A stretch of 64,000 bases of DNA from an uncultured Gemmatimonadales bacterium (GCA_963779755.1 CAVZZO010000001.1:636044-700043), one strand, 5' to 3'. Shown: positions 10,853 through 56,849, counted from the stretch's first letter. Translations and numbers: made by a program. Notes: generated from the letters alone by a model not told the origin.

Positions 10853-11034
10853 GTCTGCCTCCTTTGCTCCGGCAACGGTGACTGCGTCCAATCGCCGCCG
10901 CGTCACTCCGGGATCGTCATCAGGCCCCGGATCATCGCAGATTCCGGCATCCGCTCCGCAGAATGCTTCTCAGGAAGCAGGTAGCCTTTCGAGCACTGCG
11001 TTCTGCAGTGCCGCCTGGCGCATCTTGGACCTGC

Positions 11035-11160
11035 AAGGACCACCTCCTCCAGTCCCGAAATCATCTTACGAACCGCTACCGAATTCCACAACGTTGCCAA
11101 CGGCCCCGCCGCGAGCAGGCCCGGCGGGCTCCGCCGGCCGGGGTTGTCACGGCTGAGTAC
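11035..11160 (-). other. Relic D: degraded intI 3' end plus attI-like sequence
   Basis: On the minus strand it reads VLSRDNPGRRSPPGLL, compared with the intI C-terminus [16 protein letters not shown]. This is followed by GTTGTGGAATTC..GATGATTTCGGGA..GCAGGTCCAA, which is alignable with 54675..54763. The CTAAC crossover motif is missing. Confidence 0.45.
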
Positions 11161-11326
11161 GCTGCCCAGCCGCCCCGAGAGAAGGCAGGTAGAGCACAGA
11201 AGTATCGCATCAGACTCTGGCAAGTCTGCCGCGGGCGGGGAAGGTGGCTGGCGGGGATTCTTCATTTCAGTGACAGGCATGGCCGAGACACGGCTTCGGT
11301 CGAGAGGGGGATCCTGGCTCCAGTTC

Positions 11327-12238: not shown

Positions 12239-12284
12239 AATAAGCTCTGTCTCCGCGCCCGGCCCCTCTTGACAACGCCAGGCA

Positions 12285-27070: not shown

Positions 27071-27202
27071 GGCTAACAGGTATTGGACCTGCGTACCCAT
27101 CCCACTGAACCGCCGACCGACTAGAAATTATCTTACGGTCCGCAGCCTGATTCCACAACATCGCCGCGGAGGCTCGCCCAGGAGATCTGCCGGGCTCCGA
27201 AG
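27071..27202 (-). other. Relic B: intI 3' end (..[11 protein letters not shown]) plus attI-like sequence ending in GTTAGCC
   Basis: It aligns base-for-base with 54675..54800 (TTGGACCTGCGTACC...GAAATTATCTTACGGTCCGCAG..ATTCCACAACATC). The intI coding remnant is cut off by a GTCA..CTGA-type hairpin repeat at about 27203. Confidence 0.55.
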
Positions 27203-37140: not shown

Positions 37141-37463
37141 GTGAGTCTCCGTCCGTGAGTTGAGGAACCTCCAACCCGACGACGAACGGAGCCTGCGGAA
37201 ATCGACACGCCGATTGGACCGGCCAGGACGGCTGAGGCTGCGTTACAGGGTGCGCCGACCGTCATGTACTCGACGTGGATGGTGGTGTCAGGTGCTGCCT
37301 GACGGCCTGCCCTCAGCGGCAGCAGCCTGATCGGTTCAACCAGCGAAGGCTGCCGCCCCGGCAGCTGGAAGCGCAGGTAGGGGGGGCTGAGCGCCCGCTG
37401 GGTTGCAGGGCCGACGAAGCCCAGGGTGGCGAGATCATACCCGGAAGCAACGGCGTGGCCGAA

Positions 37464-37601: not shown

Positions 37602-37622
37602 GTTAGGCGGCAATGGTCAGCT

Positions 37623-38942: not shown

Positions 38943-39006
38943 GCCTAACGCTCGGGTTCAGTGGCGGGCCGCGCAGCGGACCGTTCGCTGCCACCCGTTG
39001 TTAGCC
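38943..39006 (-). other. Short attC site (64 bp)
   Basis: GCCTAAC...GTTAGCC with an imperfect internal palindrome. The stop codon of the upstream (minus-strand) gene lies inside GGCTAAC. The next ORF starts 37 nt after the core. Confidence 0.5.
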
Positions 39007-39685: not shown

Positions 39686-40719
39686 CTAGAGAATCCCGCT
39701 CTCCTTGAGCCAGTTCTCTACAAGCGAAGGCCACATCGCCACCGGATGTTCTGTGCGCCTCAGTCCGAAGGCGTGCCCGCCCTTGGTAAAGAGATGGACC
39801 TCTGCCGGGACGCCCGCATCATCAAGGGCGCGCGCGTAAACCGTGCTGTTGCAGATTTCGTCCACGGGGTCATCCCACGCCTGCAACAGGAACGTCGGCG
39901 GCGTCTGCGTTGTGACGTGTATGCCGGGGTCGAGGGTGGCACCATCGCGGCACAGGTGACCCGGGTAAAGCGCGACGGCGAAGTCAGGGCGGCTACTTAG
40001 TTTGTCTGCCGCATCCACCGGCTTGTATGTGGGCTCGAATATGTTGCTGGTCTGCGCGACCAGATAGCCGCCTGCCGAGAAGCCGATCACCCCAATCTTG
40101 TTGGGATCAAGGTTCAACTCCTTCGCCCTGGCGCGAACGAGCCTGATCGTTCTTTGCGCGTCCTGAAGTGCGCGGGGACCTTGGGTGTGATGTGGCAATG
40201 GCAATCCTTGTCCCAGTAGTGATTGCTTTTGGGAACGCGATACTTGAGCAAGACGCACGTGATGCCTTTGGCGGTCATCCAGTCACATATTTCAGTCCCT
40301 TCAAGGTCCATAGCCAAAAGCCGGAATCCGCCGCCGGGGAAAACCACCATTGACGCGCCGGTATTCCTGCCCACGGGTGGAAAGACCGTCATGGTCGGAG
40401 AAGTTACGTCATAGGCTGCGGTCCAAGGGCGCCCCGCGACGACATCCGGGGCTTTCGTGACTTCAACTCTCTCGGCCGGTTGAGAGACGCCTTCCATATC
40501 CGGCGCACCCTTCGGCCAGATCGGGATTTGTTCCAATCCTGAAGGCGGCTGCCAGACGCCGGCCTTCCCGACATCCGTTTGTTGCCGGTCTGATGTCGTC
40601 GGCCTAGTCGCTTGCGCCGGCTCGGCCCAAGGTTTGTGCATCACGGCGACGCCACCCGCCAAGCCCGACAACCCCAAGGCGCATAATAGGCATGAGCAAA
40701 GGTCGGCACACTATCGACT
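39686..40719 (-). pseudogene. Esterase (BD-FAE-like alpha/beta hydrolase) with at least 2 frameshifts
   Basis: AAGGAGG plus GTG at 40719 opens a signal-peptide frame. The body is split between the track ORFs 40114..40677 (..VVFPGGGFRLLAMDLEG..VLLKYRVP) and 39686..40258 (..GVIGFSAGGYLV..GGHAFG). The shifts are near 40680 and 40180. Confidence 0.65.
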
Positions 40720-40796: not shown

Positions 40797-40956
40797 GGCT
40801 AACGCAGATTGGACCTGCAGGAACCACGTCCCCCCCAGCCATCCCGAAATTATCTTAGGGGCCGCCACCTGAATTCACAACATTGCCAACCGGCCCCGCC
40901 GCCGGCAGGTCCGCCGGGCTCCGTATACCCTGGCCGCCACGGTTGAGGACGTGGGT
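40797..40956 (-). other. Relic C: intI 3' end ([17 protein letters not shown]) plus attI-like sequence ending in GTTAGCC
   Basis: It is alignable with 54675..54830. The coding remnant is truncated at 40957 by the TTCACTTCAGTGATAAGCC repeat. Confidence 0.6.
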
Positions 40957-41962: not shown

Positions 41963-42117
41963 GGGGGGAAATATAGGGTTTGTGTCGGTTCCTGTCCCGC
42001 TTAGGGCCGGAGAAAGAGCACGCCGTCATTGCGAGGGCGCGCAGCGCCCGTGGCAATCCCACCGCTTCCGGCGGGGAGCTCCCCACCTCACCGCTTGCTC
42101 CTCACGCTCACCGCCGA

Positions 42118-42898
42118 CCTAACCCCCTGTCCCCCTTCCCTGTTGGGAAGGGGGGACCGGGACGACCAGTTCGAAGAGAAGGGGGAACCGGGACGGCCGA
42201 TGTAAAAGAGGCTGTCACCCTGAGGCCGCGCCAGCGGCTGAAGGGGCCGAAGCTGGAGGATGGCTTCGGTCCCTTCGCTGCGCTCAGGGTGACAACCCCC
42301 TGTCCCCCTTCCCTGTTGGAAAGGGGGGACCGGGACGGGCGGTGCGAAAGGGCTGTCACCCTGAGGCCGCATCAGCGGCCGAAGGGGCCGAAGCTGGAGG
42401 ATGGCTTCGGTCCCTTCGCTGCGCTCAGGGTGACCTAACCCCCTGTCCCCCTTCCCTGTTGGGAAGGGGGGACCGGGACGACCAGTTCGAAGAGAAGGGG
42501 GAACCGGGACGGCCGGTGTAAAAGAGGCTGTCACCCTGAGGCCGCACGTGCGGCCGAAGGGGCCGAAGCTGGAGGATGGCTTCGGTCCCTTCGCTGCGCT
42601 CAGGGTGACCTAACCCCCTGTCCCCCTTCCCTGTTGGGAAGGGGGAACCGGGACGGCCGGTGCGAAAGGGCTGTCACCCTGAGGCCGCATCAGCGGCCGA
42701 AGGGGCCGAAGCTGAAGGACGGTTTCGGTCCCTTCGCTGCGCTCAGGGTGACCTAACCCCCTGTCCCCCTTCCCTGTTGGGAAGGGGGAACCGGGACGGC
42801 CGGTGTAAAAGAGGCTGTCACCCTGAGGCCGCACGTGCGGCCGAAGGGGCCGAAGTTGAAGGATGGTTTTCGGCCCCTTCGCTGCGCTCAGGGTGACA
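42118..42898. repeat. Tandem array 2: five units (174/142/174/145/145 bp) of the same composite hairpin repeat
   Basis: Unit boundaries are at 42118, 42293, 42435, 42609 and 42754. Short units lack the CCAGTTCGAAGAGAAGGGGGAACCGGGACG segment. The hairpins are the same as in array 1. Confidence 0.9.
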
Positions 42899-43039
42899 TT
42901 ACGCGCGCCGCCGGCGCTCATTGCCCGGGCGCGAGAGACACCCAGCGCCGCGATCCTTCACTTCAGTGATAAACCCGCCGAGACTCGGCTTCAGCCGAGG
43001 GAAAGATCCCCTTGCGTGCCGCGAAACCCTGCCATTAAG

Positions 43040-44656: not shown

Positions 44657-44686
44657 AAGGCGGTTGCCCTGGGTGAGAGCTTGGGG

Positions 44687-44799
44687 CAGTAACAGAGATG
44701 TGGATTTCGCGGTCGGTCGTCCGATGGTCCCGGCTCATCTCGCGCCGCGCCTTTGGGAGCGGAGCCCAAGCGCCCCGCCGGTGCAAGCAGCTGTTAGAC
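44687..44799 (-). other. Degenerate attC (last recognisable one of the contiguous array)
   Basis: On the minus strand it reads GTCTAACAG...CTGTTACTG. It lies 13 nt after the ParE/RelE stop codon. Internal arm pairing is weak. Confidence 0.4.
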
Positions 44800-44812
44800 G
44801 GACCGCACGATC

Positions 44813-45103
44813 CTATTCCACGGGGCCGATGCTCGCCCGACGCCCATGGATCACAGCCAACACGGTCACGACGTCGGCTTGTGGCCGATAGATGATGCGA
44901 TAGGATAGCTCGAGCAGCTCGCGAAGATCAGAATTGGAGCGTTCGGGAACTGGTCGGCCGACATTGGGAAAGTCTCGCAGTTGACCGGCCCGGCGGACGA
45001 GTCGGTGCACTGTGAGGTTGGCATATAGAGGAGAGGTCAGGGCAATGTAGGCCCGAATGGCCTCCAGATGGGCTTGGGCCGTCTCAGTCCAGAGGAGCCT
45101 CAC
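44813..45103 (-). CDS. ParE/RelE-family toxin
   Basis: 96 aa. LWTETAQAHLEAIRAYI...GRPVPE....LREL....YRIIYR......V.VLAVIHGRR. Confidence 0.8.
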   Translation of the reverse strand: MRLLWTETAQAHLEAIRAYIALTSPLYANLTVHRLVRRAGQLRDFPNVGRPVPERSNSDLRELLELSYRIIYRPQADVVTVLAVIHGRRASIGPVE

Positions 45104-45288
45104 GCCGGGAGACTAAACCGTTTCGCAACGTCCTCATGGGAAATCACTCGCCCGGCTTCGGCATCGGCCAGGCCGCTATCAATGGCCTGCTGAACGTGAA
45201 TCTCGTAGAGCAGGTCGTCCCACGAGGCTTGCTCGGCCATTCGTTCTACGATCTGGCGAGCGCGTTGCTTGATATCGGGAGCTGACAT
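45100..45288 (-). CDS. Cognate antitoxin (small helical)
   Basis: 62 aa with a 4-nt overlap with the toxin gene. ..LYEIHVQQAIDSGLADAEAGRVISHEDV. Confidence 0.65.
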   Translation of the reverse strand: MSAPDIKQRARQIVERMAEQASWDDLLYEIHVQQAIDSGLADAEAGRVISHEDVAKRFSLPA

Positions 45289-45353
45289 GAATCCCTCCGG
45301 GGTGCCTGAAATATGGCGTCCTTCAGGCCTGATGCCAAATCCGAGGGCGGGCC

Positions 45354-45452
45354 GCCTAACGGTTGGCGGTTGAGCGGTGATCCGCGCTCACAATATGCCA
45401 GCCATCCGACTGGTGCGCGGGCGCGGTTGACCGCTCCAAGCGCGTGTTAGGC
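45354..45452 (-). other. attC site (99 bp)
   Basis: GCCTAAC at 45354..45360 and GTTAGGC at 45446..45452. The arms are complementary with bulges (TTGAGCGGTGATCCGCGC / GCGCGGTTGACCGCTCCAA). The extra G falls in the arm next to the inverse core when read on the minus strand. Confidence 0.75.
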
Positions 45453-45480
45453 GGCGCGCACTGGCCGACAAGCACACAAC

Positions 45481-45858
45481 CTACCGAGCTGAGCCGTCTA
45501 GGCACGCTTGCAGCGGCGGTTCAGGTGATCCGAAGGCGATGCGAGCCCGCACATATTCGCGGTCCAAGAGGGTCGCTACCTCCAGCGTGGTTGAAGCCGT
45601 ACTGCGAAGATCTGCTATGGAAGGGTCGAGACGATAGTTGACTCGCTGTCGCGCGGCTGTCAACACGGATCTTACTTGGGTGAGGATGCCAGTGACCGTG
45701 TCTCGAACTGGCACGAAGGGGACGGAGACTTCCGCAAGGCGGAAATGCGTGATGTGGAGGTCCGCTCTTGGTAGAAAGAACTCGATCACAGCGCTCATGG
45801 TTGACGCCGTTACGGATGTCAGCTTGGATAGGTCTCTCTTGCCAAACAAGCTATCCAT
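45481..45858 (-). CDS. Hypothetical protein (third gene of protease cassette)
   Basis: 125-aa ORF with visibly lower G+C. It overlaps the protease 3' end by 40 nt. No recognisable motif. Confidence 0.45.
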   Translation of the reverse strand: MDSLFGKRDLSKLTSVTASTMSAVIEFFLPRADLHITHFRLAEVSVPFVPVRDTVTGILTQVRSVLTAARQRVNYRLDPSIADLRSTASTTLEVATLLDREYVRARIAFGSPEPPLQACLDGSAR

Positions 45859-46706
45859 GAGGTGTCGCGAGTTGTCGAGGAGGTATGCGGCGGAGCAGAG
45901 ATCCCTCCGGGCACTATCTGCCTGAGCAACGCGACGCGATCCTCGGGCTGCGCTGGGTGCAGCGTTAGCGATGACTGCGGGCGTGATGCGTTCGCGAAGA
46001 CCTCAGCGAGGGAACGGGAACTGACAGTGCTGTCCAGAAGTGCAGTGGCATACCGTACTGGGACGGCAAAATTCAGCGCTTGGCCGCCCTGGAGGTAGGC
46101 CGTCGAGATCGCAATGACCGCCCCAGAATCGTTGAGGACAGGGCCGCCGCTCGAGCCCGGGCTTATCGGCGCGGATATCTGCAGTAGCTGGCGGCCTTCG
46201 ACCACGCGATGTGCGCTGACAATCCCGTCCGTGACTGTTTGTGATAGACCGAGAGGGCTGCCAATAGCAACGATACGGCTGCCCACGGGAGGAAGCGTGG
46301 TGCTGGTGGATAACGTCGGCAGACTGGCTCCACGGATCCTGATAATCGCTACATCTGCGGTTGGATCAGCAGCGAGTGCGGTGACGTTGCTGAAACGCTC
46401 GCCTGTTGCCAGAAGGACGGCAGCCGATGTGGCACCAGCCATGACATGATAGTTGGTGACGACCACTCCATCCGGGACTATAATGAAACCGCTCCCTTGT
46501 CCTACTGTGTCACCTCGCGCATCAACAGCGAGGATTGTAACTGTGGCCGGAATGGCGCGCTTCGCAAGTTGGACGGTAGTTAGAGGGCGCTGGGCTGCTG
46601 CCATGGCGCTATAGGCGACAAGGCCGACGAGCACCGCAGTCGTTCTGATCGCTGCTTGCAAGTATGAACTCCGAAGCGGGTAGGCGCCACTCGGTAGTTG
46701 AGGCAA
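45819..46706 (-). CDS. Trypsin-like (S1/S1C) serine protease, secreted
   Basis: Hydrophobic N-terminus. Catalytic triad contexts TNYHV (H), DVAIIRI (D) and PGSSGGPV (S). No PDZ domain. The start is a non-ATG codon. Confidence 0.8.
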   Translation of the reverse strand: MPQLPSGAYPLRSSYLQAAIRTTAVLVGLVAYSAMAAAQRPLTTVQLAKRAIPATVTILAVDARGDTVGQGSGFIIVPDGVVVTNYHVMAGATSAAVLLATGERFSNVTALAADPTADVAIIRIRGASLPTLSTSTTLPPVGSRIVAIGSPLGLSQTVTDGIVSAHRVVEGRQLLQISAPISPGSSGGPVLNDSGAVIAISTAYLQGGQALNFAVPVRYATALLDSTVSSRSLAEVFANASRPQSSLTLHPAQPEDRVALLRQIVPGGISAPPHTSSTTRDTSWIACLARETYPS

Positions 46707-46736
46707 CGCCGCGTGGCATCGGGGCCAGAGCGAGTA

Positions 46737-47018
46737 TCAAATGCAGGAGAACACATGTTCCTCTCGAAAATCAATAGCAGATCCTGCAGTGAGCCCTTTG
46801 AAGTCAGCGGCGTTCCAGTCTTCGAAGCCAATTATGGTGCCGGAGATCGCTCCTCCGAGAACACGCACTACTTGAACGACGAGGATAACCCGCCCGTCCC
46901 GAAGGGAGACTTGGGCACCAACACGGATGGTCGAAGGGACTGCCGTACCGGGAGCCTGAAAGCCCCCGAACACGATAGATCTGTCTGCACGGGTGGCGAG
47001 TGCAAGCGGTTCATTCAT
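46737..47018 (-). CDS. Hypothetical small protein (first gene of protease cassette)
   Basis: 93 aa from MNEPLALATR (an alternative start lies at 47072). Beta-rich and lower in G+C. The stop is 30 nt before the protease start. Confidence 0.45.
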   Translation of the reverse strand: MNEPLALATRADRSIVFGGFQAPGTAVPSTIRVGAQVSLRDGRVILVVQVVRVLGGAISGTIIGFEDWNAADFKGLTAGSAIDFREEHVFSCI

Positions 47019-47263
47019 GGGTCGCTTCGACTCCGAAGACTTTAGAATGCGGCTGAATGCGATTTGGCACAATGCGGCTACTTGGCACCGGTACCCGACT
47101 GGGCTGTGAACCGGCGCGCGAGCTTCAAGTCCTTGTGCGCTTTATGCTTGCGTGTGATCTTGTGATTCCTTGCTCGGGCAATGCGGCAAAAAAGAGGCCG
47201 GAGGCCGTGCGCGCATTTGCCGCGCGGTGTTGGGTGACTGCGTTTCGTACGAAAGGCCGCGCC

Positions 47264-47367
47264 GCCTAACGAAATGCGTTTCAGCCGCGAAGGCGCGGCC
47301 CTAGCGCCCGGAGGGCTTTTTTGAGCGGGTGCGCCGCGCCTTCGCCGTCTGCAAACGCTTGTTAGGC
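47264..47367 (-). other. attC site (104 bp)
   Basis: GCCTAAC at 47264..47270 and GTTAGGC at 47361..47367. The arms GAAATGCGTTTCAGCCGCGAAGGCGCGG / CCGCGCCTTCGCCGTCTGCAAACGCTT are complementary. The brnA ORF reads into it. Confidence 0.75.
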
Positions 47368-47666
47368 CTCCCGGCCAGCCGGCTCCGGCGACGTTCGGTC
47401 TCGACCCGATCGGCAAGGTACACCTTGAGCAGACTCTGATAGGGGACATCCCGCTCGTTGGCGAGCAACTTGAGCTCGGTAAGCAGGGTATCGGGCAGCC
47501 GGACCGAAATGGCTGTGGACGAAGGCCGGAGATGGGGAAAGCGCATCACCCGTGCCTTCGACCAATCCACATATTCGGTCGAGTCATGCGTGGCCCAGAA
47601 GTCGCGCTCCTCGTCCTCAGTCCGGAAGGTCGGGATGTTCTTCAATGCTCGCTTGGGCTTGGGCAT
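47301..47666 (-). CDS. brnA: BrnA-family antitoxin (CopG/RHH-like)
   Basis: FRTEDEERDFWATHDSTEYVDW....ISVRLPDTLLTELKLLANERDVPYQSLLKVYLADRV. The C-terminal tail is read-through into the attC. Confidence 0.8.
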   Translation of the reverse strand: MPKPKRALKNIPTFRTEDEERDFWATHDSTEYVDWSKARVMRFPHLRPSSTAISVRLPDTLLTELKLLANERDVPYQSLLKVYLADRVETERRRSRLAGRPNKRLQTAKARRTRSKKPSGR

Positions 47667-47970
47667 ACTGGTGCCGCTCCTTCCGATTCATGTCCCGGGC
47701 CGCGATCACGCGAATCAGAGATCCGCGCACCGTGAAGACGAGGTAGAGCCTCCGGTTCGCGAGGGTCCGGCCGAGCGCTTGCCACCGGAGCTCGGTGCCG
47801 GAGTGCTTCGCATCGAATGCGGCGACCAGAGGTTCCTGAAAGAACGCCTGTTCGCACTCCCCCGGCTCCACGTTGTGGCGCGCCAGCACTTTGGGCGCGT
47901 TGCCGGCGTCCCATTCAAAGCCGGTGCAGCGGCCCAGAATCGCGTAGGCGTCCGGCGGCTCTCCCGTCAC
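47617..47970 (-). CDS. brnT: BrnT-family toxin (DUF497 ribonuclease)
   Basis: FEWDAGNAPKVLARHNVEPGECEQAF........SGTELRWQALGRT..RRLYLVFTVRGSLIRVIAARDMNRKER. Confidence 0.8.
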   Translation of the reverse strand: MTGEPPDAYAILGRCTGFEWDAGNAPKVLARHNVEPGECEQAFFQEPLVAAFDAKHSGTELRWQALGRTLANRRLYLVFTVRGSLIRVIAARDMNRKERHQYAQAQASIEEHPDLPD

Positions 47971-48028
47971 TCAGGAAGTATATGTGGGGTATATACGCCA
48001 GTCAACCGGTAGGCTCCGCCATCCGGAG

Positions 48029-48159
48029 GCCTAACGAAGTGCGCGTCAGCTGCAGCGCGATGCTTTAGGTCTTCACAAACTACGCTTCCTTAGCCGCGCC
48101 GCTAGGAACTCCGGATGATGCGACCGGCCCGCGCGACTGGCCTGCCAGCTGGACGCGCT
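48029..48159 (-). other. attC, larger part (interrupted; remaining 7 bp GTTAGGT at 50746..50752)
   Basis: It aligns with the 140-bp attC at 51958..52097 up to ...GACGCGCT. The expected TGTTAGG is then missing here, and GTTAGGT is found at 50746, immediately after the IS end. Confidence 0.7.
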
Positions 48160-48273
48160 CATGTACGCGGATCCTTTCGGGCTGCTTGCCCAGGATTGTT
48201 GTATCGAAACGGGGGATTGGCGAAAGGATAACCTGCTTCACCCTGCTGTTACAGCGGCAAGAGAGACAACCCG

Positions 48274-48615
48274 ATGCTGGGAGTAGCTGTGGGTCTCCTG
48301 GCCGTTGCAGGTGGGGCCGAACTGGCTGCTCCCAGGTTATTTGCCGCGGCCACCGCTGCTCTTCCTAAGGTACCGTTTGAGAAATTCCAGGACTGGGGAC
48401 GAAATGTTGTCCAATGGGGCCGTGGGGCAGCGGGGGCAATTCAGCGGGTTTCTGAAGTGACGGCCGAGCAGGCCTCTAAATTGGATCCACAGAAAGTGAA
48501 GATGGCTCGCGACTTCTACCAGAAAGCTGTTGATGCTGGCCGAGGGGGAGCCGCCGCACCTGAACGAGTAAAGCTGATGGAACGCATTTTAGACCTGCAG
48601 CAGAGAACCCATTAG
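48274..48615 (+). CDS. Hypothetical protein (N-terminal hydrophobic segment, helical C-terminus)
   Basis: 113-aa ORF, lower in G+C, oriented opposite to the array and located inside the attC insertion. Confidence 0.4.
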   Translation: MLGVAVGLLAVAGGAELAAPRLFAAATAALPKVPFEKFQDWGRNVVQWGRGAAGAIQRVSEVTAEQASKLDPQKVKMARDFYQKAVDAGRGGAAAPERVKLMERILDLQQRTH

Positions 48616-48640
48616 TGGCTCGGTCCGGTCTATTCGAGCA

Positions 48641-48910
48641 TTGCAACACGGAGGAAGAGCCATGCTGGAAGCAGCGGTCACACTTCGGCTTACGAATAGA
48701 TGCGAAACTGCGCGGAAGCTCGTGATTGAGCCATGGACCACCGAGTTTCGACTGCAACCTGGGCACACTTACGACTTGGTGATATCAGGGGACCTTGGCC
48801 TCCCCTTAGAGGTTGAGTTCGAGGACGACGAACTAACCGTATACACTTTCGATTCCGCCAATGCCTCCTTCAAGATTTCCGAAGGCGGGGCTGAACTTAA
48901 ACCACTGTAG
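48641..48910 (+). CDS. Hypothetical small beta-rich protein
   Basis: 89-aa ORF starting 25 nt after the previous one, with non-repetitive acidic composition (LEVEFEDDELTVYTFDSANASFKISEGG). Confidence 0.4.
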   Translation: MQHGGRAMLEAAVTLRLTNRCETARKLVIEPWTTEFRLQPGHTYDLVISGDLGLPLEVEFEDDELTVYTFDSANASFKISEGGAELKPL

Positions 48911-49394
48911 GAGCCCGGCCCTGTCTAGCCTGGGGCGCTCGGGGCGCCTCCGGGTTGTCGGGCCTGAACTCCGAGGGGTCGGGTCTAGTAGGAGCCTCGC
49001 GGGCTGCCGCGCGTGGCGGACCTCGGCCGGCGGAAAAGGAAAGTGGTGGGGGCCCCACGAGTTCAGCGGAACCCATCGGCTCCAGACCTGCCGCGAGCCG
49101 GCTCCCTCGTCGGGCGTCATGCGCCCACGGGAGCAGACGGGGTCACCCCACCGGCTCCAAGGTGCTACCCGGTCCTTCGATTGTCAAAGAGCGCCGCGTT
49201 CCGCGTGCCGGCGGGATCCTGGCACCACCCTCATAGGTCGTTGAGGCTCGGGGCCTCCCACATCTTCATGGATGCTCTCCGATCCGCGGCCGGGCGGCCA
49301 GCAACTCTGTGCGCGGAACTCACCGAAGACGCCGGCGGCTCAAGGCAAATAGAGGGCGGCCCGGCGCGCACGCGCGGCTCCCCCCGGTCTCCGA

Positions 49395-50660
49395 CTATTC
49401 GATCACCACCGGCTCTGCGTGATGCCGCTGGGTCTCCCAGCGCTCCCGGTCGAACGGCTGGCCCGACTGGAGCACGGCCAGGAGGAGCGGCACCAGCTTG
49501 CGGGCCACCGCGCAGACCGCCTTGGTCCGGAGCCCGCCATTGCGGGCCAGCAGGGCCTGGTAGACCCCGGTACAGCCCCCGGGGCTGGCACCAGCGGCCG
49601 CCGAGCAGAAAGAGTTGGCGGCGCAGCAACGGCCGGCCCCGTTTGGACTGCTTGCGCCGGCCCTGCACCGTGCCGCTGGAGCGCTCGACCAGATTCATGC
49701 CTGCGAGTTTCAGCACCTGGCGGGGATGAGTGAAGCGCTCCGGAGCGCCCAGCTCGGCCACGATCGTGGCCGCACAGGTGGCGCTCACCTCGGGAATGGT
49801 GGTCAGCGCCTTGGCCGCGGGGCACTGCTCCACCGAGCGCGGCGATCTGCTGGTCCACCTCCGCGAGTTGCGCCCGCAGCAGGTCCCAGCGGGCCAGCAG
49901 CTGCTGGATCTCCAGCGCCGCTCGGGAGCGGCGCCGGCCAGGGCGACACTGGTGCGGGCGGACTCGCGCAGGACGTGGAGCTGCCCTGGGCTCACGTGGC
50001 CCCGCGAGACGGACCGCGCCAGGCGAGTCACCGCGGCCGGGGCGGCCGCCAGGAAGTCCTGCGGCAGCGGCCAGCGCGCCAGCAGGGCGCGCGGCGTGGG
50101 CTTGCGCACCTGCGAGAAGTGCGTCAGGAACTCGGGCCAGGCCAGGTCGAGCAGGCTCTGGAGACGGTTCTTGAACCGGGTTTCCTCGACGGTGAGCCGA
50201 TGACGGTGGGTGGTGAGCAGCCGCAGCTCGAGATACGGGGGCTGCAGCGCCGGATATCCCACGAAGATCCCCAGGCTCACCAGCTTGCAGATCTCGGCGG
50301 CATCCTTCGCGTCCGTCTTGTTGGGGCTGTTATCCTCCAGTTCCTTGGCCCGCTTGGTGTGGGCCGGCAGGATATTGACCAGCGCATAGCCGCGCGCCCG
50401 CAGGCACTCGGCAAACGTGAAGCCGTGATGGCCGGCGAACTCCAGCCCCACCAGCATCTGGCCGGGCCGGATGCCGGGAAACCAGGCCGTCAACTGCGCG
50501 CGGCGGCCTCGAAGCCCGCGCGGCTCACCGGCACTCGGACCGGCTTCGTGCGGCGCCCATCGGGGCCCTGAGCAACCAGCACGTGGACCCGCTTCGCGGT
50601 ATCCACGCCTACGTGAACGGGGAACGTGCGGGCATAGGCAGACTTTTCGTCGGGGGTCAT
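49395..50660 (-). pseudogene. IS110-family (IS1111-like) transposase, multiple frameshifts
   Basis: The N-terminus is FPVHVGVDTAKRVHVLV (DEDD domain). The middle is LVGLEFAGHHG...NILPAHTKRAKEL. The C-terminal domain is TIPEVSATCAATIVAELGAPERFTHPRQVLKLAGMNLVERSSG..RRKQSKRGRPLLRR. The true end (GLYQALLARNGGLRTKAVCAVARKLVPLLLAVLQSGQPFDRERW...VVIE*) is in a third frame. At least 3 shifts are present. Confidence 0.8.
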
Positions 50661-50746
50661 GGCGCGGCTCCGGGTGGAGGGAATCACAGGAGTCGCGGAA
50701 GGAGCTACGGGCCGCGCAGCGGCGTCAAGCGGGTATAGATGTCTAG

Positions 50747-51487
50747 TTAGGTAGCACCACGAATCAGACGGCGGCCGTGAGGAGTGAGTTCCGCGTGTCT
50801 GACGCTCCCAATCTGGTAGTCCCCGGGACCTCCTGTGGTAATGATTCCGAGGTCTTTCAAGCCGCGCAAGATCAGATCAAGTCGCGCAACCGGGATGCCC
50901 GTCACCTCAAGCACCGTGGTCGTGTGAAGTCGGTACTGGTCTGGCGTCAGGGTGCGGAACTGGGCAAGTACCGCAGCCACCTCGGCGGCCGAGTCCACAT
51001 CTGGGAGTAGCGACGGAGCAAGGGCGATGTATGTGCCAGGCACGAGGCGCGTTCGCGCGATTCCGACAGCGTGATTCAAGTCTGGATCAATACGAATGAA
51101 GCCGAAATCGCGAAGATCCTCCGCTGCCTCCAAGTACTCATGCGGCGAAACATCCAAATCGGTAATGGCATCCTCTGCTTCAGCAAACTGGAACAGCTGG
51201 CTGGCCTCGCGATAGAGGCAGTAGGCCAGCAACCGCAGGGGCGTACCAGAAAGGCGGACGAATGGAACTTGAATTGCTTCGAGCGCGGTCACGCGCTCTT
51301 CGAGACTGCCAACCCGGACACCGAGTTTCGATACCTGCTCATTCGCTACGCCGTAGCCGCCCAGGGCGGCAAGACGCGCTACCAAGGACGCCACGCCCGA
51401 AATCGGCTCGACAACCAAGGCCACGCCAGTGAGTGTCCACGCAGCGATGGTCGGCCAATCGAGGCTCGAATCCTTTGCTGAGGTCAT
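50747..51487 (-). CDS. Hypothetical cassette protein (N-terminal TM helix, coiled segment, possible C-terminal wHTH)
   Basis: The start MTSAKDSSLDW lies 15 nt after the attC core GTTAGTA. The stop TAA is inside the inverse core ACCTAAC. The 395-aa track ORF is read-through across the attC. Confidence 0.6.
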   Translation of the reverse strand: MTSAKDSSLDWPTIAAWTLTGVALVVEPISGVASLVARLAALGGYGVANEQVSKLGVRVGSLEERVTALEAIQVPFVRLSGTPLRLLAYCLYREASQLFQFAEAEDAITDLDVSPHEYLEAAEDLRDFGFIRIDPDLNHAVGIARTRLVPGTYIALAPSLLPDVDSAAEVAAVLAQFRTLTPDQYRLHTTTVLEVTGIPVARLDLILRGLKDLGIITTGGPGDYQIGSVRHAELTPHGRRLIRGAT

Positions 51488-51502
51488 CCCGCCTCGTAGT
51501 GC

Positions 51503-51642
51503 TACTAACGAAGTGCGTTTCAGCGGCGGCGCGATGCCCCGCTCCCTCACATCCGACGCTTCCTTACCGCGACCGCTAGATGTCCCAGAAATGCACCAGC
51601 GGGCTGCAGCACCGTGCCCGCCGCTGCAAACGCTTGTTAGCT
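51503..51642 (-). other. attC site (140-bp family)
   Basis: TACTAAC at 51503..51509 and GTTAGCT at 51636..51642. The arms GAAGTGCGTTTCAGCGGCGGCGCG / CCGCCGCTGCAAACGCTT are complementary, with one extra base in the right arm. Confidence 0.8.
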
Positions 51643-51957
51643 GCCGGCCGCAATGACAATTTCGGGTGCGATGACGCTGCCGGTATGTGCGGAGCCCCCG
51701 CGCCGGGAGACCGGGCCGCCAACCGGGAGCCTCGGCGGGGCGGGAGAACGCTGGACGCCTCCGAACCTGCTCGGCGCACCTTCCTTGCCATGGAGCGCCC
51801 CGCGGAGAGAAACCTTGGGCGGCATCGCGGAGCCTTCCAGGCGTCCCGCGCAAGGAGGCCGGTGCCGCCTCACCGCTACCAACCAACTGCAGAGTTCCGG
51901 CGGCACCACCAGGCGCCCACCAAGAGATCAGCACTGGGCGGCCCGACTGGCGCGTGC

Positions 51958-52097
51958 AGCTAACGAAGTGCGCGTGTGCTGCAGCGCGATCCCTCAGGAT
52001 TTCACAAACCTACGCTTCCACAGCCGCACCGCTAGGAGGCCCGAGTGGGGGCCGGCGGCCCGCGCGACCGGCCTGCAGAACGACGCGCTTGTTAGGC
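51958..52097 (-). other. attC site (140-bp family)
   Basis: AGCTAAC at 51958..51964 and GTTAGGC at 52091..52097, with the same family architecture. Confidence 0.8.
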
Positions 52098-52104
52098 CCC
52101 GCGG

Positions 52105-53175
52105 ATTCATATACTAAGTGCAACAACGGAAGGCGACGAAAGCGGTGATCTGACAGCAAGTAGACTTCTCTGTCCGCCAAGACAAGGAAGCCGACCATGA
52201 ACTACCGCCAGATCACCGCCGCTGAACGGTACACCCTCGGCCTGCTTCGCCGACAGGGGCTGACGGCGGCAGCCATCGCGCGCCTCCTCGGTCGCCACCG
52301 CAGCACCATCGGCCGCGAGGTCCGGCGCAACCGCACCCACCACGACGGGGGCTACCGCCCCCAGCTCGCCGACTGGTACGCGCGGGGCCGGCGGAGCCAC
52401 TCGCGCCGCAACACCCGGTTCACCGCCACGGATTGGGCGGAGGTGGAACGCCTGGTGCGCGAGGACTGGAGCCCCGAACAGATCGCCGGCCGCCTCGCCG
52501 CGGACGGACACCTCGCCATCAGTCACGAGACGATCTATCGGTACGTCTGGGCGGACCGCGCGGACGGCGGCACGCTCTACCAGCACCTCCGCGGCGCCCG
52601 CAAGCAGCGCCGCAAACGGTACGGGCGCTACGACAGCCGGGGCCGCCTGGCCGGGAAGCGGATGATCACGGAGCGGCCTGCGATCATCGAAGGCCGCAGC
52701 CAGGTCGGTCACTGGGAAGGCGACACCGTCCTCGGCGCGGGACAGGCCGGCCCCTGCGTGCTGACGCTGGTGGAACGGAAGACCGGCTATCTGATGCTCG
52801 GCCAACTCCACCAGCGGACGACCACCGCCGTCACGCGCCGGGCGACCCAGCTGATTCATCGGGAAGCTCGCCCGGTGCGCACCATCACCGTGGACAACGG
52901 CACCGAGTTCCATGACTACGCGGCGATCGAACGGGAGACCGCCACGCGCTTCTACTTCGCCACGCCGCACCACAGCTGGGAGCGCGGAACCAACGAGAAC
53001 ACCAACGGCCTGCTGCGGCAGTACCTCCCGAAAGGCCACTCTATGGCGCACCTCACCCAGGCCGCGTGTGATCGCCTCGCCCGCAAACTCAACCGCCGAC
53101 CCCGGAAGCGCCTCCTCTACCGCACCCCGGAGGAATGCTATGCACGATGAGGCTCAGTGTTGCACTACAAACTTG
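52105..53175 (+). mobile_element. IS30-family insertion sequence (ends approximate)
   Basis: A single transposase ORF is flanked by imperfect inverted repeats containing TA(A/G)GTGCAACA (left at about 52115, right at about 53167). Confidence 0.7.
52197..53150 (+). CDS. IS30-family transposase
   Basis: N-terminal HTH (ERYTLGLLRRQGLTAAAIARLLGRHRSTIGREVRRN). The DDE core contains HWEGDTV, ITVDNGTEFH and SWERGTNENTNGLLRQY. Confidence 0.9.
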   Translation: MNYRQITAAERYTLGLLRRQGLTAAAIARLLGRHRSTIGREVRRNRTHHDGGYRPQLADWYARGRRSHSRRNTRFTATDWAEVERLVREDWSPEQIAGRLAADGHLAISHETIYRYVWADRADGGTLYQHLRGARKQRRKRYGRYDSRGRLAGKRMITERPAIIEGRSQVGHWEGDTVLGAGQAGPCVLTLVERKTGYLMLGQLHQRTTTAVTRRATQLIHREARPVRTITVDNGTEFHDYAAIERETATRFYFATPHHSWERGTNENTNGLLRQYLPKGHSMAHLTQAACDRLARKLNRRPRKRLLYRTPEECYAR

Positions 53176-53186
53176 ATATCAGACGG

Positions 53187-53756
53187 CTATTGAGAGCGAC
53201 ATTGGAGGCCCTCGCCCGTCAGCGCTCGGAGGACCTTCAGCATGCGCTGATCATCACGCGAGCAAAAGACCTCGGGATTGTCCGCTCCGGCCGCACCACT
53301 TGCTCCGTCGAATCGCCATTCTAGAAGGAAGGAGCGGCCATCATCCACTAGGAAGATGGAAGGTTCCTGCGGCGCGGGCGGTAGCTCGCGTAAGCCTGCG
53401 CGCTGTGCCGCAGCAATTCGACTCTCCCAGTTGGCCGAGTCGGGCAATGCCTGATGGAACGGTACGTGCGCTGTATTCGTTGCGTACTCCTCGGCATGCC
53501 AACGCCGTCCCTCCAGCAGGAACCGGTACAGGCGGATGCCAGTGAGGCCGAAGCCATCCCACAGGCGAATCTCCGCGTCTACACCAGGGCGCGAATCCGC
53601 AATACTGGGTAGAGCTAGGTTGCGAGCGAGTTCTGTGGCATACGGCGAGAGTTCCGCAGCCCCTGCCCGCGTCGAGCGCGGACTCGGTTGCTGCCCAGCG
53701 GCGACCGCGGTTGGCAGCGCCAGGAGCCCGAATATGAAACTCAGTCGGATCGCCAT
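53187..53756 (-). CDS. Secreted hypothetical cassette protein
   Basis: The ATG lies 8 nt after the attC core GTTAGGC. Signal peptide MAIRLSFIFGLLALPTAVAA. 189 aa with no motif I recognise. Confidence 0.65.
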   Translation of the reverse strand: MAIRLSFIFGLLALPTAVAAGQQPSPRSTRAGAAELSPYATELARNLALPSIADSRPGVDAEIRLWDGFGLTGIRLYRFLLEGRRWHAEEYATNTAHVPFHQALPDSANWESRIAAAQRAGLRELPPAPQEPSIFLVDDGRSFLLEWRFDGASGAAGADNPEVFCSRDDQRMLKVLRALTGEGLQCRSQ

Positions 53757-53764
53757 ATCAGTCC

Positions 53765-53906
53765 GCCTAACGGTCTGCGTTTCAGCGGCGGCGCGATGCC
53801 CCGCTCCCTCATAATCCTACGCTTCCTTACCGCGACCGCTAGATGTCCGAGCAATGCACCAGCGGCCTGCAGCACCGTGCCCGGCCGCTGCAAACGCTTG
53901 TTAGCT
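53765..53906 (-). other. attC site (140-bp family)
   Basis: GCCTAAC at 53765..53771 and GTTAGCT at 53900..53906. The arms GGTCTGCGTTTCAGCGGCGGCGCG / CCGGCCGCTGCAAACGCTT are complementary. Confidence 0.8.
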
Positions 53907-54219
53907 GCCGGCCGCAATGACATTCTCGGTTGCGATGACGCTGCCGGCAGGTGCGGAGTCCCCACCCCGGGAGGCCCGGCCGCCCCCTCGGAGCTCCGGC
54001 GGGGCGGAAGATCGCTGGACGCTTGTCCACCGGGAACGACGCTGACCCTGCCCCGACCGCCCCGCGGGGAGGGGCCCCGGGCGGCATGGCGGAGCCTGCC
54101 AGACGACCCGCGCAAGGAGGCCGGTGCCGCCTCACCTCCGCCAACCAGCTGAGGAACTCCGGCGGCACCACCAGGAGCCCACCAAAAGATCAGCACTGGG
54201 AGGCCCGGCTGGCGCGTGC

Positions 54220-54361
54220 AGCTAACGGTCTGCGTTTCAGCGGCGGCGCGATGCCCCGCTCCCTCATAATCCTACGCTTCCTTACCGCGACCGCTAGATG
54301 TCCGAGCAATGCACCAGCGGCCTGCAGCACCGTGCCCGGCCGCTGCAAACGCTTGTTAGCT
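54220..54361 (-). other. attC site (140-bp family), duplicate of 53765..53906
   Basis: AGCTAAC at 54220..54226 and GTTAGCT at 54355..54361. Confidence 0.8.
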
Positions 54362-54674
54362 GCCGGCCGCAATGACATTCTCGGTTGCGATGACGCTGCC
54401 GGCAGGTGCGGAGTCCCCACCCCGGGAGGCCCGGCCGCCCCCTCGGAGCTCCGGCGGGGCGGAAGATCGCTGGACGCTTGTCCACCGGGAACGACGCTGA
54501 CCCTGCCCCGACCGCCCCGCGGGGAGGGGCCCCGGGCGGCATGGCGGAGCCTGCCAGACGACCCGCGCAAGGAGGCCGGTGCCGCCTCACCTCCGCCAAC
54601 CAGCTGAGGAACTCCGGCGGCACCACCAGGAGCCCACCAAAAGATCAGCACTGGGAGGCCCGGCTGGCGCGTGC

Positions 54675-54763
54675 AGCTAACAAATATTGGACCTGCGTAC
54701 CTCCCATTGAACTCCCGACCAACCAGAAATTCATCTTACGGTCCGCAGTCTAATTCCACAACA
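54675..54763 (-). other. Putative attI, located immediately downstream of the intI stop codon
   Basis: On the minus strand it reads TGA-TGTTGTGGAATTAGACTGCGGACCGTAAGATGAATTTCTGG...GTACGCAGGTCCAATATTT-GTTAGCT. It ends in a core-type GTTRRRY exactly where cassette 1 begins, and it has no partner inverse-core arm. Three paralogous relics exist elsewhere in the window. Confidence 0.6.
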
Positions 54764-55741
54764 TCACCCCGTCTGGCCCAGCAGGTCCGCGGGACTCCGT
54801 ACCCCCAGGCCGCCCCGGTTCAGGACATGGGTGTAGATCATCGTGGTCGAGACATCCCGGTGGCCCAGGAGCTCCTGTACGGTCCGGATGTCGTAGCCCG
54901 CCTCCAGCAGATGCGTGGCAAAGCTGTGCCGCAGGGTGTGACAGGTCGCCCGTTTGCCGATACCGCTGGCCCGCACCGCCTCCGCCATGGCCCGCTGCAC
55001 TGCGGTCTCGTGGTAGTGATGCCGGCGCAGCTGCCCCGAGGCCGCGTGACGATGCCGCCGCCGAGCCGGAAAAACCCACTGCCAGGGCCAGGAGCATCCC
55101 GCTCGCGGATACTTCCGCTCCAGGCCATCGGGGAGCTCGACCCAGCCCGCCCCCTCAGCCAGATCCCGCCGGTGCCGCTCCCGCACCCGCTCCAGGTGGA
55201 GATGCAACGGCTGACGCACCGACTGCGCCAGGACGGTGACCCGATCCTTGGCGCCTTTGCCTCGGCGCAGCCGTATCTCCCCCCGTTCCAGGTCCAGATC
55301 CTTGACCCGCAAGGTGAGGCACTCAAGCAGCCGCAGGCCACTGCCATAGAGCAGGGCGGCTACCAGCGCCGAGACGCCACGCAGGTGTGCCAGTACGCTC
55401 CGGACTTCTCCCGGCGTCAGCACGACCGGCAGGCGCACCGGAGCCTTCGGCCGGGGAATGCTCCCCATGTCCACCAATGGCCGCTCCAGGACCTCGGAGA
55501 AAAGGAACGAGAGGGCCGCCTGCGCCTGCGCCTGAGTTGAGGCGGAAACGTGCCGCTCGATGCGCAGATCGGCCAGGAATTGGAGTACTTCTTCCCGCCC
55601 CAGTTCCGCCGGAGGACGGAGGCCGTGAAACCGCACAAACCGCCGAACCCAGCCCACGTAGGCCTCCTCGGTCCGCGGGCTGAAGTGCCGTAGCCGCAGG
55701 TTGAGCCGCAGGGCCTGCAGCAGTTTCGGTTTGGACTGCAT
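54764..55741 (-). CDS. intI: Integron integrase IntI (tyrosine recombinase)
   Basis: [23 protein letters not shown] is present. The IntI-specific insertion [24 protein letters not shown] compares with [20 protein letters not shown] in IntI1. Catalytic region [39 protein letters not shown]. The ATG is at 55741, with an alternative GTG at 55765. Confidence 0.92.
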
Positions 55742-55900
55742 GAGAGTATCCCCGCGGAAATCCACAAGCTTGATCCGCGACGCCTTTCCACCCGTACCCC
55801 GCCAATGCCGAGAGGACCGAAAACGCCCGCGAACTCCTCCCTTGTGTATCGAACAGTTGTTTTATACGTTTGTTCTCCACGCCCCCGGGAGCTCCGACCA

Positions 55901-56849
55901 ATGGCCCGTAAGTTCGTCATCACGCTCCTCGTCCTCGGGGCCGCCCTTACCGCCCTCGTCTTTTTCCGAAGGCATCCCACCCCCCTCACCCTCACCGGCA
56001 CCGTCACCACCAACGACGTCCTGGTCAGCCCCCAGGTCACCGGCCGGCTCGATAGCCTGCTCGTGGCCGAGGGCGACTCGGTGGCGTCCGGTCAACTAAT
56101 AGCGCTCCTGAGCCCCGAGGAGCTCCGCGGCCGACCGGACCTTCTATACCCACAGCGCCGAGGCGCTCGGCTCCCAGGTCCAGGCCAGCTCGGCCAACCT
56201 GGCCGCCGCCATGGCCCAGGACAGCGAGGCCGCCGCCACCCTGGCCGATGCCCAGCGCACCTACCAGCGCGACTCGGCGCTGACCGACGCGACGGTGCTG
56301 AGCCAGGCGGACCTGGACCGGGCCCGGACGTCGTACCAGGTGGCCCAGGCCCGCGCCGCCGCGGCGAAGAAGCAGGTGGCCGCCGCCCAGAGCTCCCTCG
56401 CCATGGCCCGGCAGCAGCAGGACGCGGCCTCGGCCCAGGCGACGAAGGCGGGGGTGCGGCTGGGATATACCGAGGTGCGGGCGCCGGGAGCGGGGATTGT
56501 GGATGTGCTCGCCGCCCGGCAGGGGGAGATCGTGGGCCCCGGCCAGCCGATCCTGACGCTGATCAACCCGGACGATCTCTGGATCCGGGCCGACGTGGAG
56601 GAGAGCTACATCGACCGGATCCGCCTGGGCGACACGCTTGACCGTGCGGCTCCCCTCCGGCGCCGAGCGCCGCGGGGTGGTGTTCTACCGCTCGGCGGAC
56701 GCGGACTTCGCCACGCAGCGCGACGTCTCCCGCACCAAGCGCGACATCAAGACGTTCGAGATCCGGCTCCGGGTGCCCAACCAGGACCGCCGGCTGGCGG
56801 TGGGGATGACGGCCTACGTGCTGCTGCCGGCTGCCGAAGACCTCATGAG
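55901..56849 (+). pseudogene. HlyD-family membrane fusion protein, at least 2 frameshifts
   Basis: The N-terminus MARKFVITLLVLGAALTALVFF..VSPQVTGRLDSLLVAEGDSV is in frame 1. The coiled coil (ADRTFYTHSAEALGSQV...AQDSEAAATLADAQRTYQRD...) is in frame 2 from about 56125. The C-terminus (VRLPSGAERRGVVFYRSADADFATQRD...) is in frame 3 from about 56636. Confidence 0.7.

Follow-up and report, generated by a model that had tools for sequence, protein, structure and literature searches.

An integron integrase and its surroundings

The subject of this analysis is an integron on the minus strand of a 64,000-nt stretch of DNA (hereafter, the window) from an uncultured Gemmatimonadales bacterium (GCA_963779755.1, CAVZZO010000001.1:636044-700043). 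It comprises an integrase gene, intI, an attI site at its 3' end (attI-1), and an array of cassettes with their attC sites (array 1), and it is followed on the same strand by three further attI copies that have no integrase of their own. The gene intI (54764..55741, minus strand, with an alternative GTG start at 55765) is intact and encodes a protein of 325 aa. An earlier note, made from the sequence alone, had identified it as an integron integrase, and this is borne out by a score of 425.6 bits against the NCBIfam model TIGR02249 "integron integrase" (cutoff 265), which is well above the scores of the XerC/XerD models, and by Pfam matches to PF13495 plus PF00589. The protein aligns to Vibrio cholerae IntI4/VchIntIA (PDB 2A3V) in a single unbroken alignment (E 1e-79, residues 8-319), which passes without a break through the IntI-specific insertion (residues 199-232); a XerC-like chain aligns in two blocks only (15-185 and 256-308), which flank the insertion. 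The feature on which the note had relied to separate IntI from XerC/D recombinases is thus present. The catalytic motifs GLRLxE, GKGxKDR, HTLRHSF, LGH and IYTHV are all found in the alignment with VchIntIA.

The closest named relatives are integron integrases of Gemmatimonadota metagenome-assembled genomes (70-76% identity; 70-78% for the nearest Gemmatimonadota IntI overall), and the location is chromosomal, as a protein identical to the window IntI sits on a 2.37-Mb contig. When the whole window was searched with IntI by tblastn, only C-terminal stubs were found besides intI, and nothing else that was IntI-like. An HlyD/ABC-transporter operon, divergent from intI, starts at 55901. Between the HlyD-like gene and intI there is an AT-rich patch (AACAAACGTATAAAACAACTGTTCGATACACAAG, 55830-55880) that holds CTGT-N8-CAAG, a near miss to an SOS-box-like palindrome, and the patch might be the promoter or operator of intI.

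attC sites of array 1

The attC sites were scored with two covariance models. The first (R2) was made from the seven window sites only; its paired arms are the R and L boxes, and the centre between them is modelled as a learned insert. The second (R3) was made from 38 sites, of which 7 are from the window and 31 from other loci. The loci with which the models were compared (L-numbers) encode IntI relatives, among the matches listed in a contig search, and were chosen for IntI alone. With R2, the seven window sites score 47-70 bits on the minus strand versus 9-13 bits on the plus strand, and with R3 they score 44-80 bits on the minus strand (E 1e-9 to 4e-19), values that are partly circular because these sites seeded the models. 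Read on the plus strand, the same sites reach only 8-20 bits with R2 and R3. Independent support comes from R2, the model made from the window sites alone: among the matches listed, it detected 31 attC sites (E <= 0.1) next to intI in ten further loci that span phyla, and so recovered attC arrays in ten unrelated genomes.

The seven sites, all on the minus strand, are those of cassette 1 (54361-54220; R3 79.6 bits), cassette 2 (53906-53765; 76 bits), cassette 3 (52097-51958; 57.1 bits), cassette 4 (51642-51503; 68.4 bits), cassette 5 (48168-48029; 44.4 bits; the remainder of a split site, with a degenerate inverse core), cassette 6 (47367-47264; 61.7 bits) and cassette 7 (45452-45354; 64 bits). 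Five of them form one family of ~140 nt by alignment, in agreement with the four to five that the note had assigned to a 140-bp family. Eight palindromes had been proposed in all, and the eighth, at 44687, did not hold up. A good inverse core, GTCTAAC (44800-44794), does follow the stop codon of ParE, with a GTTACTG 100 nt further along, but the L boxes do not pair, neither R2 nor R3 matches the site, and its fold is no better than those of shuffled sequences (z +0.67). We treat it as the degenerate end of array 1.

On the bottom strand, the DNA folds into a 7-bp R stem, an asymmetric bubble and a bulged L stem. Fold z scores for four of the sites are -4.7 (47367-47264), -4.1, -3.0 and -2.6, and for the long G+C-rich sites the fold energy alone does not separate the site from its shuffles. 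In the alignment of the 38 sites, 90.7% of the cells are paired (versus 21-37% with the partners slid), and both sides vary in 9 of the 12 L-box pairs, those of the L helix; the alignment being model-fitted, these figures lean toward the structure. Rfam gave no match in the window at the gathering threshold, attC included. Two other searches were set aside: a scan for AAC...GTT plus folding energy gave equal matches on both strands and within genes, and is uninformative in DNA of 67% G+C, and a 56-column "mini-attC" model (R1) was unable to span the long loops at the centre of the sites, found half-sites only, and was superseded by R2.

The attI site and the duplicated first cassette

The attI-1 site (54676..54770, minus strand) consists of a GATGTTGTGGAATTAGACTGCGG box that overlaps the intI stop codon, followed by GCAGGTCCAATATTTG/TTAGC, where the slash marks the crossover (G54681/T54680), about 80 nt past the stop codon. 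The same architecture, with the motif GCAGGTCCAAT-N4-G/TTAG and an upstream GGATTAG box, follows intI in the comparison loci L068, L081 and L084, and in the metagenome contigs L105 and L107, which were retrieved with the attI core motif. The locus therefore has an IntI-specific domain, at least two attC sites near intI and an adjoining attI, as a complete integron does, with the function of attI read from its sequence.

Immediately past the crossover, the array contains an exact duplication. Positions 54222-54681 (460 nt) are 100% identical to 53767-54226, both by repeat search and by blastn, and the homology ends exactly at G54681. The successive junctions read attI-G/TTAGCT, then ...CCG/TTAGCT, then ...CCG/TTAGGC, a pattern that is expected if a second circular copy of the cassette inserted at attI. 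The simplest reading of this exact tandem copy of the first cassette, bounded at G/TT, is that IntI recently re-inserted it at attI.

Cassette contents

Array 1 contains eight cassettes, all on the minus strand. Cassettes 1 (54226..54680) and 2 (53771..54225) are the two exact copies just described, each of 455 bp and without a convincing open reading frame (ORF). Cassette 3 (51964..53770) carries a 189-aa ORF (53756..53187) with no Pfam match, and is interrupted downstream of this ORF by an IS30-type insertion sequence (IS) on the plus strand, whose transposase (52197-53150) has HTH_38 plus rve domains. Cassette 4 (51509..51963) is a third member of the 455-bp ORF-less family, ~84% identical by alignment and blastn. 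Cassette 5 (48035..51508) has a 246-aa ORF (51487..50747), and then an IS110-family pseudogene and two ORFs on the plus strand. Cassette 6 (47270..48034) encodes a BrnT toxin and CopG-type antitoxin pair (PF04365, PF12441), cassette 7 (45360..47269) a trypsin-like peptidase (PF13365) plus small ORFs, and cassette 8 (44686..45359), at the end of the array, an antitoxin and ParE toxin pair (PF05016). With two toxin-antitoxin cassettes, three 455-bp ORF-less cassettes, unknown ORFs and two IS insertions, array 1 looks like a typical chromosomal one.

The ORF-less family of ~455 bp has members at 54226-54680, 53771-54225 and 51509-51963, and a shortened one at 26770-27076, and thus occupies positions 1 and 2 after attI-1 and position 1 after attI-3 (see below). 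The body of these cassettes shows no RNA-structure signal (z +0.6), no sigma-70-type promoter and no credible ORF. ORF-less cassettes are reported to be uncommon at the first position, and one in a Treponema-type integron showed promoter activity (PMC6557892).

The attC of cassette 5 is split by the IS110-family pseudogene, which is inserted right after the inverse core CCTAAC at 50751. A segment of 144 nt is identical (100%) at 50608-50751 and 37464-37607, starting in each case at an attC inverse core CCTAAC. The segment corresponds to the left end of an IS110-family element, which in array 1 continues into a frameshifted transposase (PF01548 plus PF02371, DEDD) and at 37.5 kb is present as a fragment only. 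These identical left ends after CCTAAC at two sites suggest attC-targeted insertion. A DEDD transposase together with insertion inside attC (50751, 37607) makes the element a candidate member of the attC-targeting subgroup of the IS110 family.

Orientation of the array

In the minus-strand reading, the extra base or bases of each attC site fall in the arm adjoining the inverse core, as the earlier note had pointed out, and the spacer is shorter on the inverse-core side (3 nt versus 6 nt). The cassette genes, namely those for BrnT and the CopG-type antitoxin, the trypsin-like peptidase, ParE and its partner, and the 189-aa and 246-aa ORFs, are likewise on the minus strand. The ORFs begin 9-22 nt past the GTTAG core and have their stops in or ahead of the inverse core, and the start and stop relations listed in the note (53756, 51487, 50747 and 39001) can all be seen in the sequence. 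R3 found no attC match upstream of intI (55.8-64 kb); all of its matches are downstream of intI, on the minus strand.

A control for this polarity assignment is provided by outside loci. Applied in the same orientation, R3 gives the classical divergent layout in 13 other loci, among the matches listed, which include Ectopseudomonas mendocina, Aquabacterium, other proteobacteria, Chloroflexia, Anaerolineales and cyanobacteria. In these, the attC top strands are divergent from intI and lie upstream of it. The recovery of the classical layout in the 13 control loci indicates that the assignment is sound, as a wrong polarity would make these classical integrons look impossible. We conclude that intI and the array are co-oriented and that the array begins at the intI 3' end, because the attC polarity, the minus-strand cassette ORFs, the position of the attI crossover past the intI stop codon and the duplication bounded at G/TT all agree. 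The central proposal of the note, a complete integron with intI on the cassette strand, is upheld by the same four lines of evidence.

Occurrence of the co-oriented layout

Co-oriented arrays downstream of intI were found with R3 in 8 of the 21 other intI loci that have attC on the expected side, among the matches listed. These are from Coriobacteriia (L001), Acidobacteriota (L003, L005 and L047), Planctomycetia (L017), Thermoanaerobaculia (L032) and Gemmatimonadales (L068, with 12 sites), together with L081, whose IntI is 77% identical to that of the window. The set thus includes the nearest relatives (L081, L068 and the Acidobacteriota loci). Three further contigs of close relatives (L002, L012 and L084) stop within 500 nt of the intI 3' end, and L082 stops within about 75 nt; in all four, the 5' side of intI bears ordinary co-oriented genes. 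These contig ends are consistent with assembly breaks caused by the repeats of an array that begins at this point. In a rough neighbor-joining tree, which has no support values and no Treponema IntI, the window IntI groups with L081, L084 and L002 and lies near other co-oriented soil-type loci rather than on a separate branch, and the layout is interspersed with classical loci.

The note had called this arrangement rare, and an integron of this layout in so G+C-rich a genome, with a conserved attC family, worth characterizing. This assessment is not supported, given the occurrence of the layout in eight other loci, including the nearest relatives, and the existing literature. The Treponema intI is transcribed in the direction of attI (PMC3607928); Treponema, Acinetobacter, Chlorobium and Blastopirellula are given as hosts of reverse integrons (PMC6557892); an "inverted integron-integrase group" has been described, and is paraphyletic (Cury et al. 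2016, PMC4889954); and integrons have already been reported in Gemmatimonadota (PMC8618304). With intI on the strand of the attC top strands and the cassette ORFs, and attI at the intI 3' end, the window integron is an ordinary member of the reverse, or inverted-integrase, group, and its layout is normal for its clade. A sedentary chromosomal integron, as defined by Cury et al. (2016), is present in all genomes of a species or has >19 attC sites; array 1 has 7-8, and falls outside this category by number.

As a separate observation, the Acidobacteriota reverse integron L003 has pairs of attC matches with identical scores, at 14476-15077 and 20138-20738 (spacing ~5.66 kb), which indicates a recent tandem duplication of several cassettes inside that array.

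attI platforms without an integrase

The note had placed the integron at 44687-55765. The integron does lie there, and integron-derived material that the note missed extends down to ~11 kb. A unit of ~120-150 nt, made up of the final codons of intI, the region of the stop codon with a GATGTTGTGGAATTAG box, and GCAGGTCCAA-N5-GTTAGC, was found by repeat search and alignment at three other places on this strand, near 40.8, 27.1 and 11.0 kb. The 10-mer GCAGGTCCAA occurs four times in the window (0.17 expected), always on the minus strand and always at an attI copy. Platform 2 (40803..40956, minus strand) has an intI stub (codons ~304-320) and then attI-2 (GCAGGTCCAATCTGCG/TTAGCC); platform 3 (27077..27202, minus strand) has a stub from codon ~315 on, which is fused to a hairpin of the REP (repetitive extragenic palindromic) type, and then attI-3 (GCAGGTCCAATACCTG/TTAGCC); and platform 4 (11019..11161, minus strand), seen by blastn and alignment, has a stub and then an attI-like site in which the core GTT has become GCC. 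By tblastn, the IntI C-terminal stub of platform 2 (40956..40906) covers 17 aa at 88% identity, and a weaker stub lies at 27202..27173; by blastn, platform 4 is 76.7% identical to 40803-40951. Copies 2 and 4 start near codon 304/305, right past the catalytic tyrosine, and copy 3 starts at ~315, at the truncated REP hairpin. The attI copies are 77-81% identical, and by their shared substitutions they pair as (1,3) and (2,4).

What follows each of these platforms differs in its state of preservation. Behind attI-2, the first gene (39686-40677) is an alpha/beta-hydrolase in two overlapping frames (40677..40114 and 40258..39686), apparently a frameshifted pseudogene. It is followed by the attC of a RibD_C cassette (38943..39006, minus strand; PF01872; R3 26 bits, E 1e-4, non-seed) and by a decayed attC (37297..37382, minus strand; R3 28.1 bits, E 3e-5, non-seed) with cores CCTACC and GTCAGG, which adjoins the 144-nt IS110 fragment (37464-37607) inserted after CCTAAC. 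A cluster of attC sites lacking integron-integrases (CALIN) takes at least two clustered attC and no integrase nearby; the two non-seed matches behind attI-2 are 1.6 kb apart, and one of them is core-mutated. Only weak matches (E 0.006-0.4) lie behind attI-3 and attI-4. The first cassette after attI-3 (27076-26770) is related to the 455-bp ORF-less family, and its decayed attC (26834-26768, minus strand; R3 13.8 bits) has a good right arm and has lost the left. Two further attC-like sites on the minus strand, both decayed and weak, are at 19949-19845 (R' = GTCAGGC; R3 19.1 bits, E 0.006) and 19289-19167 (R3 15.8 bits, E 0.04), and there are matches weaker still. Counting all non-seed R3 matches with E < 1, eight are on the minus strand and one is on the plus strand.

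To see how far such remnants occur elsewhere, we can turn to the relatives. For 17 other loci with a co-oriented intI, the 10 kb on the downstream side held no extra attI copy; as this flank is shorter than the ~14-kb spacing of the window, the negative is not a strong one. Metagenomes searched with the attI core motif gave 80 contigs, of which eight carry the lineage-type attI. In these, intI reads through in two (L105, L107), is cut by the contig end in one (L106), has a large internal deletion in two (L094, 12120-12670; L149, 726-1380), has a small gap or frameshift in one (L144, 2-900), and is absent or unrecognizable in two (L118, 612-790; L148, 3766-3950). The other 72 contigs, which have no extended similarity, are probably chance matches to the 16-base pattern. 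Loss of the integrase with retention of attI thus seems to recur in this clade. A recent large segmental duplication was considered as the source of platforms 2 and 4 and is unsupported, since the neighboring ArsR genes are only 27% identical.

Other repeats in the window

Several repeat families occur in the same region. Tandem arrays at 11238-12245 and 42116-42904 consist of 5-6 units of ~174 bp (the shortest ~141 bp), in one orientation throughout the window, and both sit just upstream of intI stubs, those of platforms 4 and 2. In each unit, an imperfect hairpin of 82 nt (GTCACCCTGAG...CTCAGGGTGAC) is combined with a short one (CCCCCTTCCC-AACA-GGGAAGGGGG), and most units start with GTTAGG; single hairpins of the family are at 12157, 21357, 27172, 29756, 33264, 43983 and 44255. 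These GTTAGG units were considered as empty cassettes and rejected, as they lack an inverse core and R'/R'' pairing and are not matched by the models. A repeat of ~48 nt (CCCTCGGCTGAAGCCGGGTCTCGGCC..TTATCACTGAAGTGAAG) with two TGAA-loop hairpins, always on the minus strand, is found at 11279, 22508, 35883, 40980, 42974 and 44428, and possibly at 6540. Of these copies, one borders directly on the point at which the intI stub at 40.96 kb is truncated, and one is found just beyond the end of array 1.

Elements of ~175 nt that resemble miniature inverted-repeat transposable elements (MITEs), with 26-27-nt terminal inverted repeats made of (ATCTGCGTA) repeats, are at 59717-59890, 29538-29715 and 5527-5700, and also at 59814-60230; one cluster has a tandem periodicity of 173 bp. 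Because they occur both inside and outside the integron region, we regard them as a genome-wide family distinct from attC. Finally, a 94-nt segment is 94% identical at 4462-4555 and 19009-19102, 14.5 kb apart; one copy is within a large gene for an AAA/LuxR-type regulator, and the other is near the weak attC-like sites at 19.2-19.9 kb.

Interpretation and alternatives

Taken together, we read the region from 44.7 to 55.8 kb as a complete, minus-strand, reverse-type chromosomal integron, and the further attI copies as older, decayed tandem platforms, a reading to which we assign a probability of about 0.88. From integron biology, IntI would be expected to bind the folded bottom strand of attC (the plus strand of the window) and to recombine it with double-stranded attI. 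Circular cassettes would then enter at G/TT, pointing away from the intI 3' end, and would be transcribed in the direction of intI, by read-through or from a putative promoter. The three orphan attI sites would represent older tandem platforms from which the integrase was deleted, and which are eroding to CALIN-like, integrase-less clusters.

Several observations weigh against this reading. The seven attC scores are in part circular, as stated above, and the terminal attC is degenerate. In class 1 sites, the bulged base is a G on the bottom strand; in the window attC sites it is a G on the top strand. The 455-bp duplication could have arisen instead by slippage on the shared GTTAG. A scan for promoters of the sigma-70 type only, over 54100-56000, found no cassette promoter (Pc) with a sigma-70 consensus. 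For the orphan platforms, most attC matches beyond 37 kb are weak (E 0.006-0.4), large genes that are not cassette-like (for an RND pump, a penicillin amidase and a kinase) lie between the orphan platforms, and the ArsR genes beside platforms 2 and 4 are unrelated paralogues.

One alternative is that the orphan attI sites still function as secondary docking sites, with the one IntI acting on them in trans, so that a single integrase would run several arrays within ~45 kb. The retention of the full GCAGGTCCAA-N5-GTTAGC core and the upstream box in attI-2 and attI-3, at 77-81% identity and with unrelated flanks, is in its favor, as is the fact that (attI-1/attI-3 excepted) the similarity of the copies ends at the crossover, as expected with cassette turnover; attI has also been kept after loss of intI, repeatedly, in the metagenomic relatives. 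Yet decay is evident in the attC sites that follow the orphans (GTT now reads GTC at 37297 and 19845, and left arms have been lost), the core of attI-4 is mutated to GCC, the first gene after attI-2 is a frameshifted hydrolase, and no orphan attI bears the footprint of a recent insertion. In addition, the first cassette of attI-3 has diverged from its attI-1 counterpart as much as attI itself, which suggests that there has been no turnover since the two split. We therefore consider secondary docking unlikely. A bolder form of this idea, in which one integrase serves four co-oriented attI platforms and each attI and stub is kept by selection for extra docking or expression sites, seems to us less likely still; if true, reverse integrons would multiply their entry points around one shared recombinase.

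The possibility that the integron is structurally complete yet functionally dead, a fossil array, also appears rather improbable. Two IS elements lie inside cassettes, one of them itself a pseudogene, the inverse core of one attC is degenerate and the final attC is unrecognizable, the neighboring platforms are clearly decaying, and the sigma-70-type scan found no promoter, all of which would fit a dead array. Against this stand a full-length intI with every catalytic residue aligned to VchIntIA, six well-formed attC sites, and the 460-nt duplication, which has zero substitutions and lies at G/TT beside attI, and so argues for very recent integration.

That the palindromes are an ordinary REP or MITE family, with the recombinase adjacent by coincidence, is highly implausible: the window is indeed rich in other palindromic families (the 174-bp tandem hairpin units, the 48-nt double-hairpin element and the MITE-like elements), but none of these matches the attC model, while the attC family is strictly polar, is restricted to the regions downstream of attI sites, has all of its members at cassette boundaries, where an ORF ends within or ahead of the inverse core, and yields a model that, from the window sites alone, finds cassette arrays beside intI in ten other loci.

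Under the preferred reading, that of one complete reverse integron followed by older decayed platforms, the locus adds little as an integron, given that reverse integrons and Gemmatimonadota integrons are known and that the co-oriented layout is the rule in this clade. Its value is that of a well-assembled example, on a megabase contig, of a structure at which short-read assemblies usually break. Less expected is that attI platforms without an integrase lie here in a tandem chain, a modest but real addition. Successive stages of decay lie here side by side: an active-looking platform, an intI stub with two recognizable attC sites, and eroded sites only.

Relation to known systems

The IS1111-attC group comprises insertion sequences of the IS110/IS1111 family that target attC. 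The IS110-family DEDD element of the window resembles it in its position right after the attC inverse core CCTAAC, with the 144-nt fragment after another such core, and differs from it in that the transposase is a pseudogene.

With classical chromosomal integrons of soil and freshwater Proteobacteria (the Pseudomonas/Xanthomonas type), the window integron shares the attC architecture, a close attC sequence and the integrase family TIGR02249. The attC consensus gcCTAAC-AAG-CG..TGCAGC ... GCTGAA.CG-CAG.CC-GTTAGgc is common to the window and to loci such as L027 (Ectopseudomonas mendocina), L035 and L072. In those loci, however, intI is divergent and attI is on its 5' side, whereas here attI is at the intI 3' end. 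Reverse integrons of the Treponema denticola type are closer in organization, being likewise chromosomal and having both toxin-antitoxin and ORF-less cassettes; the window integron is distinguished from them by its host, which is of a Gemmatimonadota lineage with ~67% G+C, by its own attI motif and by its ~140-nt attC family.

The orphan platforms have two counterparts in the literature. They resemble the delta-attI-type cassettes of mobile class 1 and 2 integrons (PMC12901181) in having an extra attI in or behind the array. Those cassettes are found in short arrays on mobile elements, with a copy of attI that replaces the attC within a cassette (PMC12901181); each window copy, in contrast, consists of the left half of attI plus an intI stub. 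Because IntI recombination cannot move the left half of attI together with such a stub, a deletion or duplication of the platform would be implied. The orphans may derive from in situ deletion of intI or from duplication of whole platforms, and may go back to an old duplication or to separate acquisitions.

The second counterpart is the CALIN elements (PMC4889954), to which the regions behind attI-2, -3 and -4 may correspond, as stretches with attC-like sites and no integrase. Loss of intI has been proposed as one origin of CALINs (Cury et al. 2016, PMC4889954), and recognizable intI pseudogenes were found near just 15 of 279 of them (95% had none) in a search that needed >50% profile coverage (PMC4889954), a threshold at which stubs of 10-17 codons are invisible. 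The regions described here differ from those CALINs in keeping, at their head, a short 3' stub of intI and a recognizable attI. As attI abuts the intI 3' end in the reverse layout, a deleted integrase leaves a recognizable scar, and this attI scar offers a practical test of the descent of CALINs from complete integrons, which Cury et al. (2016; PMC4889954) could rarely show.

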